In this document: positions 3,093 to 38,735 of the stretch, piece by piece | How positions within the stretch are numbered: the first letter of the stretch is position 1 | Layout: every line of letters begins with the position of its first letter | Assembly: GCA_964343575.1 (NCBI GenBank) | Contig: CAYFJV010000001.1 | Coordinates: 224,705 to 288,704, forward strand | Origin: an uncultured Methanosarcinales archaeon | GTDB lineage: Archaea > Nanobdellota > Nanobdellia > Woesearchaeales > GW2011-AR9 | Length of the DNA: 64,000 nucleotides | Reading direction: 5' to 3' | Made by a program: the position numbers and the translations under genes | Notes under the pieces: generated by a model | Told to the model about the DNA's origin: nothing | The model's input: the letters and a program-made list of their open reading frames with translations, nothing else | Databases searched by the model: none

Positions 3093-4349
3093 ATGAATGA
3101 TAATTATAAAAGAATAAGAGAAGAGCTTATTGCTTCTCTCCCAAACTATGAAAATCCTGGTCCTGATTTCGCTCAGACCATCTATCTTTGGCCAACAGCG
3201 GTTTGTCCAATTGGTTGCGACCATTGTAATTTTGCATCACCTGCAGTTTCTAAAGATCCAACAAGAAACCTTGTTGCCAAAAATCCAGAACGGGTATTGA
3301 GGTTTGTCAGTCAGACAGGGTGTCAAAAGCTTTTTATAGCAGGTGGAGGAGAACCCATGGTTGAGGCAGGTTATGTTTATGACCTTATCAAACGGGTAGA
3401 GACTTCTAGTCTTAAAGAAATTGAGTTGATCACAAGCGCCTTCTTTGGAAAAAGCATAAAGAAATGTGAGGAGGTCCTTGACTCTTTACTAAAAGCAATC
3501 CAAGATAGGGGAGACGACGTTACTCTTACTTTGCGTCTAAGTGTTGATCTCTTTCATCGAGAAAAGATTAGTTTGCTGCCTATAACACACTTATTGGAAC
3601 TCATCCAGCTTCCAAAATATTCTCAAATAAGAGTGTACATCCGCTCAGTCTTACTTGAAAATGATCTCACCATTAAAGATCTTGCTACATCTCTTGGTGC
3701 CTCCTTAGTTAAAGTCGATGATTACCTTGAAAAGATGGAGCTTCCAAACGGAAGGGAAGTGATTGTTTATTATAAAAATCTTATCATCGATGGACGTATG
3801 GAATGGGAAAAGGTTGAAAAGTTGGAGTATAAGCCAGGAGAGAAAAACAAGGCAAGTGTGTTTAAATCCCGTTTCTTAAACAAAGATGGAAAACATATCC
3901 CTGCAAGGACATATAATGGTCCTGTCGTTGAATTTCTTGATGGAGTTGCACTTTCCCTTGAACATGACTGCACAGTTAAAATTTTAGAAGGGACCTCTCC
4001 AGATAGAATACTCTCTCTTCTAGACTATGATTTTAAGGAGTGCATGGAGTACATGTACAAAGATCCACTCACCATCTTCCTGATTGAAGAAGGCCCTCAA
4101 AGACTTGCAGAATTAGTTTCTGAGTTTGATCCAAAAGCAGTGGAAATAACAGATAATACAAATCAGCTCTATTACATTGCCGATAGAATTCTCTCTACTC
4201 CTCTCAAGAGGCTAGTTACGACACTTAAAGTTTTAGAATACCACTTGACCACAGGGAGAATAAGCATCAAAGATAAAACAGAAATCAACAAACTCATCAA
4301 AAAATATCTCTCAAAAGAACAAGTTGTAGAACTTAAGCTTGTTTCTTAA
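3093..4349 (+). CDS. Radical SAM protein of unknown function
   Basis: CPIGCDHC (CX3CX2C), GGGEP and LSVDLFH motifs; no SPASM cysteines seen. Confidence 0.85.
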   Translation: MNDNYKRIREELIASLPNYENPGPDFAQTIYLWPTAVCPIGCDHCNFASPAVSKDPTRNLVAKNPERVLRFVSQTGCQKLFIAGGGEPMVEAGYVYDLIKRVETSSLKEIELITSAFFGKSIKKCEEVLDSLLKAIQDRGDDVTLTLRLSVDLFHREKISLLPITHLLELIQLPKYSQIRVYIRSVLLENDLTIKDLATSLGASLVKVDDYLEKMELPNGREVIVYYKNLIIDGRMEWEKVEKLEYKPGEKNKASVFKSRFLNKDGKHIPARTYNGPVVEFLDGVALSLEHDCTVKILEGTSPDRILSLLDYDFKECMEYMYKDPLTIFLIEEGPQRLAELVSEFDPKAVEITDNTNQLYYIADRILSTPLKRLVTTLKVLEYHLTTGRISIKDKTEINKLIKKYLSKEQVVELKLVS

Positions 4350-4419
4350 CCTTTACTTTTTTCTTTTTTGCGCGTAATCCATAATTTCTTTATTTTGGTA
4401 AGTTTAGAAAACTTTCTTT

Positions 4420-4459
4420 ATTAATATTAATAATATCAATCATCCATTTAAGATTTCTA
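4420..4459 (+). repeat. Intergenic direct repeat, copy 2
   Basis: Matches 2974-3013. Confidence 0.85.
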
Positions 4460-4505
4460 CCTAGCTGATCTTGTTAGGGGATTGTAAGGGTGTTGTTTTT
4501 GCAAA

Positions 4506-5438
4506 ATGAGACAACTAACTGGGAACTTAGAAAGAAAACCAAGCCTTGCTGTTGGTGATATTGTTTACATCACTGATGAAGAGGATTCCGATCATGGAAA
4601 ACTCTTCCTTTGTAATGTATTTCACGAAAGACCAAGAGAAGCTTGTCCCGCCTATGGTTTTCTTGAAGTTACTGGAGAAGGAAGTTCTGAGAAGTACAGG
4701 GCAGGAGTTAGGGAGATTGTTGTAGCTGAAGATGATCTTGCAGAACATGTAAAACCTATAAGTTTTCTTTCTACTTACCATCATGGGGGAGAAAGAATTT
4801 CCTATGAGAGAGCCCTTCACATGCTTGATCGTTTGGATGCGCATAAAAGATGGATAATTGAAGCACATGAACTCGGGGTTGATGCGCATTACAGAGGAAG
4901 AGAGATGGGCAACAGTGATCTGCATCTTTCTGAGCACTTTAATGGTTTTGAAGGATCTAAAAGAGCAGAGGGAACCATTCCTATATCTCAACTTGGTTCA
5001 AGTTGTACTTTACGCTATTTTCTTCGTGATGAAAGGTTTATGCGCACGAAGAGAGATAGAGAGCTTCCTGTTTCAATTGAAGCGCGAGGTCTAGCTCCAC
5101 ACCATTATCTTGGTATTGATCTGGAAGTTGAACTTCGTGGAGGGGAAGTACTTGGAACGGAGCATGTTAGAAGGATAAAAAGAGCTTATGAAGCTGTTGG
5201 TTTAGCCATTAGTGTTAATCTTTGTGCTCGGGCAAGTATTCTTCATGACCTTTCATTTCCTCACCCACGAAGTAGAAATGGGGTGAGTGTTAGATTAGCA
5301 AAAGAGGGCGATAATTTTGTTTCTCACAGGACTCTTGGTGATGCACAAAGGACACTCCTTGAAAGGCTAAAAAGGGTTGAGTTAAAGAAGGTAAAAATTA
5401 CAAGCGTTACTTTAGAAGAAATTCGAAGGGATTGGTGA
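4506..5438 (+). CDS. Hypothetical protein (ORFan-like)
   Basis: 310-aa ORF, first of three overlapping + strand ORFs; no family recognised. Confidence 0.7.
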   Translation: MRQLTGNLERKPSLAVGDIVYITDEEDSDHGKLFLCNVFHERPREACPAYGFLEVTGEGSSEKYRAGVREIVVAEDDLAEHVKPISFLSTYHHGGERISYERALHMLDRLDAHKRWIIEAHELGVDAHYRGREMGNSDLHLSEHFNGFEGSKRAEGTIPISQLGSSCTLRYFLRDERFMRTKRDRELPVSIEARGLAPHHYLGIDLEVELRGGEVLGTEHVRRIKRAYEAVGLAISVNLCARASILHDLSFPHPRSRNGVSVRLAKEGDNFVSHRTLGDAQRTLLERLKRVELKKVKITSVTLEEIRRDW

Positions 5439-7213
5439 TAGGAGTGGGAGATATCATCCGCCATTCTTTCACTGGAACACTGCGAAGTCTTGCTTGTGAG
5501 ACATCCAGTGAAGAGTTTTCAAAACTTTTTCCAAGAAGAATTGGGGAAAGACCAGAGCAAACAATAGAAGGACTCGTTGAAACTCTTGCAGAAAGAGAAG
5601 ATCCTTCTCTACTGATTGAGATGTTTGCTCATTTTTCTAGAGAAGGAGGAAAAGGAAGATTTGAATTTGATCTTTGGCCTCGCTTGTTTAGAGATTTTGA
5701 CCTTCAAAGAGAAACCTGCGCTGCAATTAGGGCTTGCGAAGGAGATAGAAAAAGAGAGAAAATTCTTTTCAGAGAAGTGCTAAGAATGCTTTACTCTGAG
5801 CGAAGAATGTTCAACTACAAACAAGATAATGACGAACCCCATGGGTATCGCTTAGGACCAAAATCAGAATGGACCCAAGGAGGAGTTTGGGCAGATGCAA
5901 GACATAGCCCTCCAAGTGAGAGAGCAGCTCATCTTATGCGCACAGTCAAATTCTTTCAAAGTAATGAAGCGCAAAAGCTCATGTCTACTTATGATTCAGG
6001 AAGATCACTTGATGCGGTTGTTGCTTGCGCTGTTGAATGGGGAGGAAGTATCTCTCAGAATCATCAAGAGAGGAATATTCCTGTAACTGTTGCGCAAGCA
6101 TTAGGGGGAGAAGCAGTTGTCTCTCTTCTCACCAGACTTAGCTCAGAGGGAAAAGATCCAACCAATCCCGCCTTTTACTTAGGAGAAGTGGCGGCTCGTT
6201 TTGGTGATGAAAGAAGAAGAGAAGCAGTAGAGTACAGTGCTGAACTTGCTCAAGCTTATCTTGAGGTTGATAAAGAAAGGAAGCGGAAGGGATATCAAGG
6301 ATCTGCCATGGACCTTCTCTTGTTTTATCTTGCAACCGCAGTTGTTCCAATAGGTAACCCTTACAGTGATGCCTATGATGCTGAATACGCGGCTGCACAC
6401 CCAAGTGCAAGACAACTTCACTTTGGAGCAAGACCTTCTGGACAAAGAGATATTGTTCCTGCACAGCAGAGGATTGAAGAAGGGTATTTTAGAAACCTTC
6501 TTTCTCTTCGAGGAGAAGTTGTTCATCTGAGTGCTTTGCACATGCCAGATCCTGCATCTTTAGAGACACTTGTAGTAGGAGTAGTTAACCTTAGTGGCCC
6601 ACTTGGAGCAAATCCTCAAGAAACGAGAAACTTTGCAAAGTTATTAGTACATTATGGAAATAGTCCTTGTGTAGATGTTGTTTCTGAACTTATCTGTGAG
6701 GAAGCAAGAGCACGTTGGAGCGAGAAGGAAGCCATTGCTGAGATCTATGAATTTCTTGGACATCCCGATGTTATGAGGGTTGCTCACCTTGATGATCCTG
6801 CTGTCGTAGATACAATGTTGACGGATAGACTTGCTCAAGATCCGCGAACTGCGATGGGATATTCTGGTATGAAAGAAGAGATTGAAAGAGACAGAAGAAG
6901 GAAAGAACATGCACTGAGAGGAAGAATTCTTTGCGAGACCTTTCCAGGTCAGGCTAGAAGATATATGGAGATGCGAAAAGATGAACTCTTAAGAGTTTTC
7001 TCACAAGAAATTTATGGAGATGCCCTTGCAAGATACGAAGAGGAGAGAGGCTTGTTACTTGAAGAAGAGAGAGCAATGCTCTTCGATGCCAAAAGAAGTA
7101 GGCTACTTCATGCACTTGGTATGAAGGTGTGTAGAGATCCAGATAATCTTAGAAGTTATATTACTAGAACTAGAGATCTTTTAGAAAGAAGTGGAGGGAC
7201 TTCTTATGGTTAG
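5432..7213 (+). CDS. Hypothetical protein, R/E-rich and helical
   Basis: 593-aa ORF overlapping both neighbours; no family recognised. Confidence 0.75.
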   Translation: MVIGVGDIIRHSFTGTLRSLACETSSEEFSKLFPRRIGERPEQTIEGLVETLAEREDPSLLIEMFAHFSREGGKGRFEFDLWPRLFRDFDLQRETCAAIRACEGDRKREKILFREVLRMLYSERRMFNYKQDNDEPHGYRLGPKSEWTQGGVWADARHSPPSERAAHLMRTVKFFQSNEAQKLMSTYDSGRSLDAVVACAVEWGGSISQNHQERNIPVTVAQALGGEAVVSLLTRLSSEGKDPTNPAFYLGEVAARFGDERRREAVEYSAELAQAYLEVDKERKRKGYQGSAMDLLLFYLATAVVPIGNPYSDAYDAEYAAAHPSARQLHFGARPSGQRDIVPAQQRIEEGYFRNLLSLRGEVVHLSALHMPDPASLETLVVGVVNLSGPLGANPQETRNFAKLLVHYGNSPCVDVVSELICEEARARWSEKEAIAEIYEFLGHPDVMRVAHLDDPAVVDTMLTDRLAQDPRTAMGYSGMKEEIERDRRRKEHALRGRILCETFPGQARRYMEMRKDELLRVFSQEIYGDALARYEEERGLLLEEERAMLFDAKRSRLLHALGMKVCRDPDNLRSYITRTRDLLERSGGTSYG

Positions 7214-29635: not shown

Positions 29636-29687
29636 GGAACGAAAGAAAAAGAATTAGAGGGACAGAGGTGAACGAAGTGGAACGAAG
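29636..29687 (-). promoter_or_regulatory. GGAAC/GTTCC box cluster A
   Basis: GGAACGAA at 29636, TGAACGAAG at 29669 and GGAACGAAG at 29679; the 14-mer GAACGAAGTGGAAC is identical to 32188-32201. Confidence 0.65.
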
Positions 29688-31538: not shown

Positions 31539-32078
31539 TTATTCTACAATGATCTCCATAGAAGCTGAGCTTAAGATACCATCAACAATATCATACTCGC
31601 CAGTTTCTGTGAAAGTCCAAGTGTAAGTCTCTCCAGGTAAAAGAACCGGACTTAAGATGTCATTGTGCAAACGAAGTCCAACAACCATTGCTTGATGCAA
31701 AGGAGGATCTTCTCTTTCGTTAACCCAAGTGATAGTATCTCCAACATTTAAGGTAAGCGTCTCAGGTACAAAACCATCATCAGTCATTTGGACAGTGAAC
31801 TCAGTTTCGTCTACGACTTCTTCTTCCTCTTCAGTGCTTTCTTCAGCTTCATCAGCAGTTTCAGTTTCTTCCTCACTTGACTCATCTTCTACTATTTCTT
31901 CCTCTTCTTCAACAGGTTCTTCTTCAGATTCCATTGCATCGTCTTCTTCAAGGACCTCATCAGTACTCTCTTCTACTTCAGCATCAGTTATTTCAACATC
32001 AGTTGCTTCTTCCCCGGAACAAGCAAAGAGAAGAAGAGCCACCATAAAAAGGGAACATAAGAATAGTATTTTTTTCAT
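31539..32078 (-). CDS. Lipoprotein with acidic stalk and cupredoxin-like domain lacking copper ligands
   Basis: Lipobox LFAC, E-rich linker, F.P..L....GDTITW.N...L.PGETY..TF...G.Y; no Cys/His in the ligand loop. Start MKKIL follows GGAGTGA. Confidence 0.8.
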   Translation of the reverse strand: MKKILFLCSLFMVALLLFACSGEEATDVEITDAEVEESTDEVLEEDDAMESEEEPVEEEEEIVEDESSEEETETADEAEESTEEEEEVVDETEFTVQMTDDGFVPETLTLNVGDTITWVNEREDPPLHQAMVVGLRLHNDILSPVLLPGETYTWTFTETGEYDIVDGILSSASMEIIVE

Positions 32079-32168
32079 TGTTATCACTCCAACAGGCCAC
32101 ATTTGAACTGAGATTCAGCTCTTTGCTTCGCCCATTTTTCTGTTTCTGGATAGAAACTAACTAAAAAT

Positions 32169-32205
32169 GCTATTTAAAGCTTTTGAGGAACGAAGTGGAA
32201 CAAAG
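32169..32205 (-). promoter_or_regulatory. TATA box plus GGAAC/GTTCC box cluster B
   Basis: TTTAAATA on the minus strand (32171-32178); GGAAC at 32187 and 32197. Confidence 0.7.
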
Positions 32206-32293
32206 CTAAGAGAAAGGGGGCTTTGAAGAGATACTTTTGGCTTCTTTCACCCTGCCCTCTGGCTTTTTGTCACTACTAAAGAATACTCAATGG

Positions 32294-32308
32294 CGAAAAA
32301 TTTAAATA
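32294..32308 (+). promoter_or_regulatory. BRE-TATA promoter with no downstream + strand CDS
   Basis: CGAAAAA-TTTAAATA matches the archaeal consensus. Confidence 0.7.
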
Positions 32309-32330
32309 GTAGCGTGGGATCTCCCAGAGT

Positions 32331-32390
32331 AACATCTATCACCTCTTTTCCCCAGCAGAGTGTCTTCGGATGCTTTGTTTGGGGTTTTTT
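32331..32390 (+). ncRNA. Candidate ~60-nt small RNA
   Basis: Promoter at about -30, 15-bp hairpin (32350-32384) with C(UUCG)G tetraloop and four G-U pairs that work only on the + strand, then T6. Confidence 0.6.
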
Positions 32391-32476
32391 ACTTTAATCT
32401 CTTAATTTCTTAGAATTTTATCTTTTTGGAGGGTTCTCTTATTAAGATTTTTTACTTTTTGCACTTTACTCCTGTC

Positions 32477-34417
32477 TTATCTCTTCCTAGCCTTTCTTCC
32501 CACACCTTGGTGGAAAAGCCACATCAAAAGGATCCCTAAGATAAATCCTTGAGTAAACCCACTAAAGAAGGTTCCAAGATCAGGTAAGAAGGCAGCGTTA
32601 ATGATGCCTTCTTCTTCAGGGAAATAAATGTCAAGATCGCTGAGCTCAAGTGCGTACTCAAGATAAAGAAGTGCAGAGTATGATGCTTCTTGCTCAGCTA
32701 AAGTTTTTGCATACTCATAATAAGAGTAACCTAAAATTGGAAAGATGCCTTCCTCAACGTTTTCAGAGATAATTCTTTCTACTGCAAGTGTTCTACTTTC
32801 AATTGAAGCATCAAAGTTTTCTGGAGTAATACCCAAAGAACTCATAACTGTACTTGCTTGCGCCTTTGCTTGCGCTGCTTGAATCAGGCAAGCAGTAAAA
32901 CTTTCTGCGTCACGCTGGGTTTCTGCAAGAGTAATCTTTTCTTTAATCTCTTCTAGCTCTATGGCAGGAAGATAAGTCTCAACATATTGAAAACGCTCCT
33001 GCGCTTCAGCAATTTTTTGGTGACAAACTAACTCTAAGTTATCATCATCTAGAAAAAAGAGTTTTCCTTCCATATCAAAAAAGTGCATCCAAGAGATCGC
33101 TGACTCAATTCTTTCTTGAGCATAGGCTAAAGTGTAGAACTGATCTTCTCCTTGCTCACTTCCCGCAAGAGAATCCAAAGTTTCTTGCGCTTCATGCAAA
33201 CGCTCTTCCACAACCATTTTGGTTTGCAAATCGGCAATGGTTTCAATTGGCTCTTTTGCAAGATCACTTGCAACTTGGTTTAGTTCTGCCTGCAGGTTAA
33301 TTATCTCTTCTGAGATCTCCTCTTGACTGAGATCGTTGATAAGGTTTATTTCGTAGCCCAGGTAAACATTGAGACCAAAACAAAAGCTTGCAGCTGAGTA
33401 GTGATCACCTTGCTCCCTTGATGTTGCAGCTGCATCTTTTCTCTCAGTAACTGCACCCTCTCTTTGCGTTGCCAGTTCTTCATCTTCCTGCGTTGTTTGT
33501 AAAAGAAGATCAAGCTCTGCTTCAAGAATATCTGAACGCTGACAAAGGAGAGTTTCCAGCTCTTGCATAATTTGTGTGTACTGCTCGTCTACAACGAACT
33601 CAATATCTGAGCTACGAAGCTCTTGGCCAGTAAGATGAAAAAGTACTTCATTCAAGTCTTTTACTTCAACTACCTCAATGCCAAAGGTGTCTACACCGTA
33701 GGCAATAAGATCGTTATAGGGGTTTGTCTCAAGAAGAGGGTTTTCATCATCTACGATGCTTTGTTCTTCTTCAATTGTTGTACTTTGCTCTTCTTCTGAG
33801 GAGCTTCCTTCAATAATAGTAAGTGGATCCTCCGTTGTGCTATCCTCTTGTTCTAAAAATTCTTCTCTTGCACCAAATGGAATTAAGACTTTGGTGAATC
33901 CCTCGCTTGCTGCAGCATCAATTTTTTCTTTAACTCCTCCAACAGGACCCACTATCCCACCAGAGTTTATTGTTCCGGTGATAGCAACTTTTTCATCATA
34001 CTCTAATTCAAGCATGCTAATGGTGGTTAATGCAGCAATAGCAGCTCCTGCACTGGGTCCACCGATAATGTTTGTGTTTGCTCGAATGGTATAGATAAAA
34101 TCATAATGTGTACAATCAAGATCAAAGTAACCACAAGCGATTTCTTTTGCATATCTTGTCGAAATTTGTGTATCTATTTTTGTAAGCGGGCTTGTGTCTA
34201 AGAAAACTCTTCCTGAACCTTCTCGAAGTTCAAGATAGAGATCTGCGGTATTTCCTTGAAAAGTACCGTCAGGCATTTCTTGCACAGCAAGGAGAGGAAG
34301 ATGGTTTATTTGATTGGTATTTGCTGCAAAAGAGAGAGGGAGAAGTGAGAGAAGAAGTAAAGTAATTATGAAGAGCGAAGAGAGACGAGAAGAAAGCGAT
34401 TTCATCTCTTGAGGCAT
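32477..34417 (-). CDS. Secreted, membrane-anchored Lon-type (S16) serine protease domain protein, no ATPase
   Basis: Signal peptide, GSGRVF, GGPSAG, TGTI, PVGGVKEK (Ser-Lys dyad) and C-terminal TM. Confidence 0.88.
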   Translation of the reverse strand: MPQEMKSLSSRLSSLFIITLLLLSLLPLSFAANTNQINHLPLLAVQEMPDGTFQGNTADLYLELREGSGRVFLDTSPLTKIDTQISTRYAKEIACGYFDLDCTHYDFIYTIRANTNIIGGPSAGAAIAALTTISMLELEYDEKVAITGTINSGGIVGPVGGVKEKIDAAASEGFTKVLIPFGAREEFLEQEDSTTEDPLTIIEGSSSEEEQSTTIEEEQSIVDDENPLLETNPYNDLIAYGVDTFGIEVVEVKDLNEVLFHLTGQELRSSDIEFVVDEQYTQIMQELETLLCQRSDILEAELDLLLQTTQEDEELATQREGAVTERKDAAATSREQGDHYSAASFCFGLNVYLGYEINLINDLSQEEISEEIINLQAELNQVASDLAKEPIETIADLQTKMVVEERLHEAQETLDSLAGSEQGEDQFYTLAYAQERIESAISWMHFFDMEGKLFFLDDDNLELVCHQKIAEAQERFQYVETYLPAIELEEIKEKITLAETQRDAESFTACLIQAAQAKAQASTVMSSLGITPENFDASIESRTLAVERIISENVEEGIFPILGYSYYEYAKTLAEQEASYSALLYLEYALELSDLDIYFPEEEGIINAAFLPDLGTFFSGFTQGFILGILLMWLFHQGVGRKARKR

Positions 34418-34624
34418 TTTTTTGGGGTTTTTAAAGCTTTGTCAAGCGCTTTGCTCCGAGAGATTGGATTTAATTGGTAGAAGGAAAGGTTCTTGTTCCT
34501 ATTCTTGACATTGTGGGAAAATCTAGAAATATTTATATAGTTTTGTCCATATTTCATATTTGTTTGTGTTTTAGAAGAATTTTGGTGGTTTTTTGGTTTT
34601 TTTGAATCAAAAGGTGAAGTACAT

Positions 34625-38552: not shown

Positions 38553-38735
38553 GGGGAGGAAATGAAGTGAAGAGAAAAAACGACAAAAAGTAAACATTTT
38601 TTGATTAAAGTCTACAAAACTTGTTACAAAATGGCGATTTAAAAGAAAAATTTATATTCATTTTTCTAAAACACCTTTTGTAGCCTGTGAACCGAACAGG
38701 AGTTCAACTTAGTTTAGGCTGCATGAGGTGATAAG

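Follow-up and report, generated by a model that had tools for sequence, protein, structure and literature searches.

The window analyzed here, a 64,000-nt stretch of archaeal DNA (contig CAYFJV010000001.1), holds at 32331-32390 (+) a predicted gene for a stand-alone structured small RNA (sRNA), here called sRNA-A, and not the ribosome-binding site (RBS) or leader of a minus-strand peptide. As judged from genome sequences, the RNA family to which it belongs is conserved throughout archaea of the Woesearchaeota/Pacearchaeota type (Nanoarchaeia), and copies are also carried by tailed viruses. The function favored for sRNA-A, at a little less than an even chance, is that of a mimic of the anti-Shine-Dalgarno (anti-SD) tail of 16S rRNA, which would pair with RBSs of the GAGGUG type. 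In the locus labels used below, the source genome of the window is G000, other genomes carry G numbers, and fetched loci carry L numbers.

Promoter, Fold and Extent of sRNA-A

Two minus-strand genes border the 374-nt spacer that holds the element, which is composed of the following features (BRE, transcription factor B recognition element; MFE, minimum free energy):

32271-32290 (+), promoter-upstream element CACTACT-N4-AATACTCAA; kept as DNA; likely transcription-factor site
32293-32300 (+), BRE-like purine-rich element GCGAAAAA; from the window sequence, with a CGAAA/CCAAA-type sequence directly 5′ of TATA in 35/41 family loci
32301-32308 (+), TATA box TTTAAATA; from the window sequence, with a TTWAWAWA octamer in family loci
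32331-32349 (+), open 5′ segment AACAUCUAUCACCUCUUUU, holding AUCACCUC; unpaired in MFE and centroid folds
32350-32384 (+), hairpin with a CCCC/GGGG base, variable upper stem and UUCG loop; from the ViennaRNA fold and covariation
32385-32390 (+), U6 tract, presumed archaeal termination signal and 3′ end; from the sequence and a terminator scan
32331-32390 (+), whole predicted small RNA, sRNA-A, of ~60 nt; from covariance models R1 and R2

Each part named in the original prediction, from the BRE-TATA pair and a start near 32331 to an open 5′ segment, a 15-bp UUCG hairpin with G-U pairs and a U6 tract, was recovered where it had been placed. Positions 32293-32390 of the plus strand read GCGAAAAA-TTTAAATA, 22 nt, AACATCTATCACCTCTTTT, the hairpin CCCCAGCAGAGTGTC-TTCG-GATGCTTTGTTTGGGG and TTTTTT. 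The AACATC at 32331 begins 22 nt past the TATA box; among 41 distinct family loci, 22-23 nt separate the end of a TATA-like octamer from AACATC in 37 and 21 nt in one, and no such octamer was found in three. When these 41 loci are aligned on the transcription start site (TSS), their consensus is CACTACT..AATACTAAA..ACCGAAA..TTTATATA, whether or not the minus-strand open reading frame (ORF) is open. The upstream element, in family form CACTACT-N5-AATACTAAA (32271-32290), is together with the TATA box unique in G000, and a conserved, promoter-unique element of this kind suggests that transcription is regulated. Promoter geometry and the sharp onset of conservation at 32330/32331 place the probable TSS at 32331, and the 3′ end of sRNA-A presumably lies in the U-run.

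ViennaRNA leaves the first 19 nt of sRNA-A open and folds 32350-32384 into 15 pairs with one bulged U, a UUCG loop and several G-U pairs (MFE -26.1 kcal/mol, z -2.41, with 3/200 shuffles equaling it). A simple terminator scan called the hairpin and its T-run on the plus strand. As predicted, no plus-strand coding sequence follows: there is no ORF of ≥60 aa after the element, just ORFs of 35 aa and 37 aa that overlap or follow it, and in 35 of 47 cellular loci no ORF of ≥60 codons starts within 60 nt downstream. The case for an independent plus-strand sRNA gene, as originally proposed, is upheld by the BRE/TATA promoter at 22-23 nt in 37/41 family loci, by the hairpin with its U-run, and by the G-U bias described below.

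Conservation, Covariation and Distribution

In a BLAST comparison of 32280-32400 with 40 relatives, matches begin at query positions 51-52, that is, at window positions 32330/32331, and the 50 nt upstream of that boundary match relatives as generic promoter words only. A set of 8 and then of 26 fetched loci shared one plan, consisting of a CGAAA..TTTAWATA promoter, an unconserved spacer, an invariant CATCTATCACCTCTTTT, a variable stem, capped in most cases by a UUCG loop, and GGGG followed by a T-run. While CATCTATCACCTCTTTT is invariant at the level of the family, the core that is invariant throughout the class is AUCACCUCUUU(U)UCCC in RNA letters, or ATCACCTCTTT(T)TCCC as DNA; CAUCU 5′ of this core is kept at family level only. 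In every match the stem is followed by GGG(G)TTT or longer.

MAFFT and RNAalifold gave a poor consensus on the unstructured alignment A1 and gave way to a structure set by hand on 7 sequences of equal length, from which the first covariance model was made, and to model-based realignment; 29 aligned matches then served to rebuild the model. Positions 32331-32387 score 49.9 bits (E 2.4e-10) with models R1 and R2. In alignment A4 (29 sequences), 99.5% of cells pair and both sides change in 11/13 pairs; in A5 (58 more diverse matches), 95.3% pair and 12/13 pairs are compensatory, values that 0/500 shuffles reach, with slid controls pairing at 28-61%. Both alignments were fitted to the model, which favors structure, but the compensatory changes are nonetheless plain in the raw sequences. 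G-U/U-G pairs outnumber A-C/C-A pairs by 51:0 in A4 and 90:15 in A5, and the folded RNA is therefore assigned to the plus strand.

Model R2 finds the RNA in 133 of the 151 genomes of the order sample (130/148 without the unpublished G135, G144 and G155) and in 104 of the 116 high-quality ones, a spread of well over 100 families in which each genome has 1-3 copies. In the phylum-wide sample, the R2 tally is 133/151 genomes, with 27/35 for the class members that belong to other orders. Named genome records, scanned with a sequence pattern, gave at least 119 stretches; among the 80 matches listed are metagenome-assembled genomes titled Candidatus Woesearchaeota, Pacearchaeota, Nanoarchaeota/Nanobdellota or "archaeon", and also a series labelled "uncultured Methanosarcinales" and one "Chlamydiae", presumably labelling or binning problems. 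Many families have two units in tandem, 2-20 nt apart, and the promoter may be 75-125 nt upstream.

No curated family covers the element. At gathering thresholds Rfam 15 had no match anywhere in the window, and at E up to 10 in 32050-32550 it gave 5 weak chance matches, none of which overlaps 32331-32390; the homologs in most class genomes sampled were found by our own covariance model. A survey of open-access and bioRxiv literature on DPANN small RNAs, archaeal anti-SD mimics and Woesearchaeota/Nanoarchaeota noncoding RNA returned no description of this RNA.

Several known classes of element were considered and rejected. A C/D box sRNA would need boxes that are missing, since 32331-32390 contains neither RUGAUGA nor CUGA and no snoRNA-clan match falls on the element; likewise, no ACA box or pocket of an H/ACA RNA is present. 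ARAGORN reported 0 tRNA or tmRNA genes in the window, and a tRNA, tmRNA or split tRNA half was discarded. The element is not a terminator or 3′ untranslated region of a neighbor, both flanking genes being on the minus strand and the U-run and G-U pairs on the plus strand, nor a bidirectional terminator, as no T-run follows on the minus strand. A fragmented 16S rRNA was dismissed because the 16S rRNA of relatives has a normal tail.

Likeness to the 16S rRNA Tail and Proposed Mechanism

G000 has no assembled 16S rRNA gene. The 16S rRNA of relatives ends in GGATCACCTCCT, of which the AUCACCUC in sRNA-A is an exact 8-nt copy; the likeness to the anti-SD tail that had been pointed out is borne out as an identity, and it is the most conserved part of the RNA across the class. 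In 17/17 family 16S trailers, the tail runs into a T-run (GGATCACCTCCTTT... or GGATCACCTCCTTTTTTT...), mostly followed by a small hairpin, and in 22/23 pre-16S leaders a conserved hairpin (GCTCAA..TTGAGT) precedes (G)AGGTGATCC, a sequence complementary to the tail (L030, L031, L032, L280-L302), suggesting that the anti-SD is paired within the 16S precursor. Complementarity between the sRNA and the rRNA operon is limited to modest sites; the best, AAGAGGUGG inside 16S, reaches -16 to -17 kcal/mol, and no accessible site was found.

The 16S loci also showed features unconnected with the sRNA. Several family 16S genes exceed the 1478-position model by 90-160 nt (G013 has 1632 nt and G281 1625 nt, for example), and many matches end at model position 828, some of them where the contig ends, a hint of insertions or introns within 16S. 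Between 16S and 23S in G040 (L029:2975-3200, downstream of 16S), the tRNA-Ala gene seemingly has two insertions (introns), one with AAAAAAGAGGTGTGG.

The anti-SD mimic is favored because the sole class-wide invariant open sequence is the anti-SD, because a paralogue described below doubles exactly that motif, because viruses have an obvious use for such a device, and because archaeal sRNAs that mask RBSs are known (PMC5867862). In the mechanism so envisaged, a strong BRE/TATA promoter with its own upstream operator would start transcription at AACAUC, and the covarying UUCG hairpin and U-tract would terminate and stabilize the RNA, leaving ~19 nt open at the 5′ end. This open segment, with AUCACCUC and the U-run, would compete in trans with the 16S tail by pairing with SD regions of the GAGGUG(AU) type and, in the window's family, also with the start codon 2 nt downstream. 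The RBSs of SD-led cistrons would be masked and leaderless mRNAs left untouched. The U-run may pair with A-rich sequence 5′ of the SD or bind an Sm-like protein; an Sm-like protein gene is present in G000 (L334). We infer both the trans action and the targets of sRNA-A.

A wider reading, which we consider doubtful, is that a portable RNA copy of the 16S tail in Woesearchaeota/Pacearchaeota and their tailed viruses sets the share of SD-led versus leaderless initiation. It could be coupled to 30S maturation via Rio1/Dim2, and the viral copies would redirect host translation late in infection.

A Paralogue Beside rio1 and the Synteny of the Family

An R2 scan of G000 returned one strong match, the sRNA-A of the window, and one weak match (E 0.03) at C2:164547-164600(-), corresponding to L119:1572-1625. 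The latter turns out to be a second sRNA gene, sRNA-B, with a TATA box 22 nt upstream, AACACCUCAAAACCACCUCUCUUUCCUCAG, a UUCG hairpin, CUGAGG and a U-run, and it is kept with its promoter in at least 10 family genomes. The open 5′ end of sRNA-B holds two CACCUC motifs, that of sRNA-A one, and this doubling marks CACCUC as the working motif. sRNA-B is divergent from an operon of rio1 (PF01163; L119:1678-2460) and the gene for KH protein arCOG04150 (TIGR03665, with a KRR1-type second KH domain; L119:2539-3150), a single TATA box being common to both, and a DnaG gene lies on its other side. The universal archaeal protein arCOG04150 is, we presume, the homologue of Dim2/Pno1. In 7/11 family loci rio1 adjoins sRNA-B, and among 30 rio1 loci from 30 families of the order a model match (E < 0.01) lies divergently upstream in 11.

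The main copy has a different neighbor:

32477-34417 (-), Lon_C (S16) protease gene, secreted or membrane (PF05362, E 9.6e-11); convergent to sRNA-A

The protease has a signal peptide and a C-terminal membrane anchor. A homologue is convergent to the sRNA in 27/37 loci, a count that includes the window's own locus, one duplicate and one locus of the unpublished G135 (24/34 without these). By tblastn, the protease accompanies the sRNA in 26/36 order loci and rio1 in 4, and neither stands beside it in 20 loci from other orders. The neighbors in those 20 loci include S24e/S27ae (6/20), ScpA (5) and a Memo-like protein (3). Overall, no neighbor is universal. SMC-family genes with an intein and a LAGLIDADG homing endonuclease adjoin the sRNA in two other-order genomes (L067:2248-3060, L083:1-1335).

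Copies in Tailed Viruses

The sequence pattern was matched in 11 IMG/VR contigs, and 9 of these are convincing model matches with the hairpin; in L304 and L309, identical in sequence, no hairpin is convincing, and both were left out of the count. In six contigs (L314, L316, L317, L318, L321, L323), the element lies between the terminase large-subunit and portal (+ Mu-F) genes on the same strand. The same six also encode an HK97/SU10-type capsid, a tail-tube protein and a family-B DNA polymerase; they are tailed archaeal viruses or proviruses. The 5′ part of the L316/L329 copy is nearly identical to the type of the window's family, and a tail 3′ of the stem, UUUAUAAUCA, is partly kept in both cells and viruses.

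Among relatives found via the portal protein (among L325-L331), the element stands directly 5′ of the portal start; in the L330 variant, CCACCUC...UUUCAUAUUC-AUG is kept and the hairpin is gone. The portal AUG lies 6-7 nt past the element in L316/L329, L321/L325 and L326-L328, and those portal genes lack an SD, compared with GGAGG-type SDs in 29/46 viral ORFs. In L317, the element is ~300 nt away and the portal gene has its own GAGGTGA. Terminase-portal position and the paired stem differences of the viral copies make it less likely that they are a simple att core. When viral sequences were scanned for the sRNA-B motif, the one match was GC-rich, had neither promoter nor hairpin, and was judged unrelated. 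In L318, the portal gene (4260-6725) has a Hint/intein-like C-terminal part.

Target Searches and Shine-Dalgarno Usage

The open, invariant 5′ segment of sRNA-A is complementary to GAGGUGAU, the type of SD found at ~65-70 RBS-like sites of G000. For an ideal site, GAGGUGAU-AG-AUG (AAAGAGGUGAUAGAUG), the computed duplex with sRNA-A is at -24.5 kcal/mol, versus -13.1 kcal/mol with the 16S tail; for the viral-type site UAGGAGGAAAA the corresponding values are -7.5 and -9.9 kcal/mol. RBS-like GGAGG and GAGGTG occur at 159:70 in G000 and at 26:4 in 9 viral loci, counts that include false starts and come from differing hosts; the contrast of host-type and virus-type SDs is no more than suggestive. 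By crude gene calls, GGTG occurs at most 25 nt from the first start in only ~12% of G000 genes, and a T/A-rich peak lies ~30 nt before crude starts genome-wide, suggesting that many G000 mRNAs are leaderless; an SD-specific regulator would thus discriminate between classes of genes.

Complements of ≥10 nt number 41 in G000, of which ~13 are at convincing RBSs; the longest exact complement outside the sRNA gene is 12 nt. Another 4 are codons for an N-terminal K-R-G-[DEV] motif in very large secreted proteins. These large ORFs of 692-1835 codons (G000:C2:138627, C1:163657, C1:158915, C1:44456) combine K-R-G-[DEV] with a hydrophobic stretch, as in class III (pilin-type) signal peptides, and their AAA-AGA-GGT-GA codons are complementary to the sRNA core by coincidence.

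A number of these searches and observations weigh against the anti-SD mimic. The SD regions originally named as partners are present (GAGGTGATA at 38725-38733, AGGTGATA before ATG 19612(-), GAGGTGAT before ATG 44597(-)), but such matches are no more frequent than chance: the window has 50 complements of 8 nt or longer, against 41.6 +/- 18 for shuffled seeds, and 29/100 shuffles reach 50. Start-region duplexes at ≤-16 kcal/mol number 137, a figure inside the span of 34-146 obtained with ten shuffled pyrimidine-rich seeds, the test itself favoring the real seed. A search for an extended target led back to the gene itself, the 13-mer GAGGTGATAGATG being present in 56/61 family genomes, nearly always once, as the sRNA gene, with no conserved extended target. 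The complement of the start codon (CAU), likewise part of the proposed seed, is conserved in the family but not outside it. GAGGTG stands at RBS distance at just ~65-70 sites for roughly 1200 G000 genes, and the A-run that should lie 5′ of such SDs was not seen (only 32-48% A), leaving the invariant U-run unexplained by pairing. To these are added the rio1/Dim2-like genes beside one paralogue, the abutment of the element on the AUG of an SD-less portal gene in several viruses, which fits a cis role, and the likeness of the sRNA core and U-run to the mature anti-SD and, equally well, to the uncleaved pre-16S junction GGAUCACCUCCUUUUUUU.

Alternative Explanations

The main alternative, unlikely in our estimation, is that the RNA mimics the immature 16S 3′ end (AUCACCUC(C) plus U-run and hairpin). 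It would engage the KH protein Dim2/Pno1, presumed to bind the tail in archaea, the endonuclease Nob1 and the Rio1 ATPase, or the SD-like element of the pre-16S leader, with a role in the last step of small-subunit maturation and not in mRNA translation. The sRNA core, AUCACCUC with U5 and a hairpin, has the layout of the 17/17 family trailers with GGATCACCTCCTTT...; the leader (G)AGGTGATCC (22/23) would offer a possible RNA partner; sRNA-B shares its TATA with the rio1/KH operon, and rio1 is adjacent in 7/11 loci and has a model match upstream in 11/30. The invariant U-run and a housekeeping-like conservation across the class fit this idea better than they fit a regulon. According to two papers, archaeal Nob1 cuts D-site sequences even in artificial hairpin contexts (PMC3326319), and Rio1, Nob1 and Pno1/Dim2 cooperate at the 3′ end of small-subunit rRNA (PMC4231747). 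On the other hand, the sRNA reads CCUCU and not CCUCC, sRNA-B lacks AUCA and has A's after its first motif, and the sRNA hairpin is 3′ of the motif, with helix 45 of 16S 5′ of it. The synteny may be merely inherited, the main copy being beside Lon_C and those of other orders beside S24e/S27ae, ScpA or Memo; and there is no clear reason for tailed viruses to carry such a mimic. The Pfam model Zn_ribbon_NOB1 had no match even in control genomes and is hence uninformative. A protein sponge of the CsrB kind would offer several open motifs per transcript; sRNA-B has two CACCUC, tandem units occur elsewhere, and sRNA-A has one.

The viral arrangement would instead fit a cis-acting leader or ribosome-binding module, working on its own transcript or directly on the 30S subunit and serving, for instance, SD-independent initiation or attenuation, with the stand-alone cellular copies as free ribosome- or factor-binding RNAs. 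This is improbable as an account of the family, though the six contigs with the element between terminase and portal on the genes' strand, the SD-less portal AUG 6-7 nt past it (L316/L329, L321/L325, L326-L328, versus an SD in 29/46 viral ORFs), the separate GAGGTGA of the L317 portal at ~300 nt, and the CCACCUC...UUUCAUAUUC-AUG that L330 retains without the hairpin all agree with it, as do the partly conserved post-stem tail UUUAUAAUCA and the mere 3-4 U after the stem in many copies, a weak terminator. It agrees poorly with cells, where 35/47 loci have no ORF of ≥60 codons within 60 nt (some exceptions overlap a real opposite-strand gene) and where the next gene in the family is convergent, its stop codon 5-90 nt away. 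Moreover, pairing with the ribosome's own anti-SD is impossible for a sequence that copies it, the rRNA showed no accessible site of complementarity (best AAGAGGUGG, as above), and the viral copies may be sRNA genes captured in an intergenic gap. Still less credible is a local effect, in which the convergent Lon_C mRNA is the target of the RNA or of its read-through, or the hairpin simply terminates that gene. The protease is convergent in 27/37 loci (26/36 order loci), its stop lies within 5 nt of the sRNA U-run in some genomes, and with no T-run after the hairpin on the minus strand until past the sRNA, the transcripts likely overlap, the Lon_C 3′ untranslated region probably crossing the sRNA gene. 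A cis-antisense pair, however, needs no conservation, yet 16-24 nt are invariant across families; copies without a Lon_C neighbor exist beside rio1, in other orders and in viruses; and U's follow the hairpin on the plus strand only, whose G-U pairs would turn into A-C mismatches if the protease strand were folded.

Finally, it is hardly conceivable that the block belongs, as SD and start codon, to a minus-strand gene for a small peptide located downstream of the protease gene, which had been named as the finding that would overturn the sRNA. The block does read hairpin-AAAAGAGGUGAU-AG-AUG with ideal RBS spacing, and in 13 loci the ORF is 21 aa long and alike at its C-terminus. In the full set of 41 distinct family loci, however, the ORF is 1-52 aa long, with ≤7 aa in 19, and the IYK/PFG likeness of its products is TATA/BRE read in reverse, DNA elements that persist where the ORF is broken. 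Conservation covers the 5′ side of the AUG and not the "coding" part, the AUG is not conserved outside the family, and the G-U bias marks the plus strand.

Relation to Known Systems

DPANN archaea, mostly uncultivated, possess minimal genomes, and to our knowledge almost nothing is known of their RNA regulators. The kind of RNA closest to sRNA-A is that of the anti-RBS sRNAs, from which it differs in class-wide invariance, exact mimicry of the tail, tandem and paralogous forms, and carriage by viruses. Open pyrimidine-rich anti-SD-like motifs, sometimes several per molecule, pair with many SD regions in bacterial sRNAs such as rhizobial NfeR1 and those of the staphylococcal RsaE/IsrR type. These resemble sRNA-A in their architecture of seed and terminator hairpin; sRNA-A differs in domain of life, in its BRE/TATA promoter, in the lack of Hfq, in its 8-nt identity to the tail and in its invariant U-run, and there is no homology.

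In archaea, Methanosarcina mazei sRNA154 and sRNA41 are likewise intergenic, independently transcribed sRNAs with an anti-RBS sequence, for which RBS masking is proposed, including at sites inside polycistronic mRNAs (PMC5867862). They are genus-level and condition-specific with identified targets, unlike the class-wide sRNA-A, which reproduces the letters of the 16S tail exactly, comes also as tandem units and as a paralogue, and is carried by viruses; no sequence relation appeared in any search here. The pre-16S 3′ end with the Nob1 site D shares AUCACCUC, a U-run and a hairpin (as in the family trailer junction), and the paralogue is linked to rio1/KH; sRNA-A, in contrast, would be a separate 60-nt transcript outside the rRNA operon, with CCUCU for CCUCC and the helix on the opposite side. 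As for viral carriage, phage-encoded ribosomal protein bS21 is reported to be a modulator at the 16S 3′ tail and initiation (PMC9723584, PMC7797042, PMC9976891). The two would share the plan of a virus-carried copy of a host component that acts at the 16S tail or in initiation, but bS21 is a protein of bacterial ribosomes and the element here an RNA of archaeal viruses.

The 16-nt invariant core, the presence in most sampled genomes of the class and the viral copies together make a central role likely, and carriage by tailed viruses is as expected of a translation-control device. Since the invariant letters are those of the anti-SD tail, the RNA bears on the balance of SD-led and leaderless initiation in archaeal translation, an open question. 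Under the wider reading given above, the RNA would be a global switch of the mode of initiation, acting at the RNA level and without a described archaeal counterpart; a mimic of the 16S end would instead bear on maturation of the 16S 3′ end. The family is sharply defined by its covariance model, promoter, paralogue and viral homologues, warranting an entry in RNA family databases, and its loci are currently annotated as empty spacers.

Genes Flanking sRNA-A in the Window

On the other side of the 374-nt spacer from the protease lies one further gene:

31539-32102 (-), cupredoxin-like lipoprotein gene

The GGAAC motif that had been reported for this region is real, an exact 14-mer, GAACGAAGTGGAAC, being present at 32188-32201 and 29670-29683 (+). 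The copy at 32188-32201 stands a short way upstream of the TATA box that serves the cupredoxin gene on the minus strand and is probably a shared operator (the "GGAAC cluster"); the chance expectation for the repeat is 0.36 at ≤2 mismatches. The Lon_C gene itself appears leaderless, with TTTAAAAA 22 nt before ATG 34405 (34380-34460, -), so that its true start is probably 34405 and not 34417.

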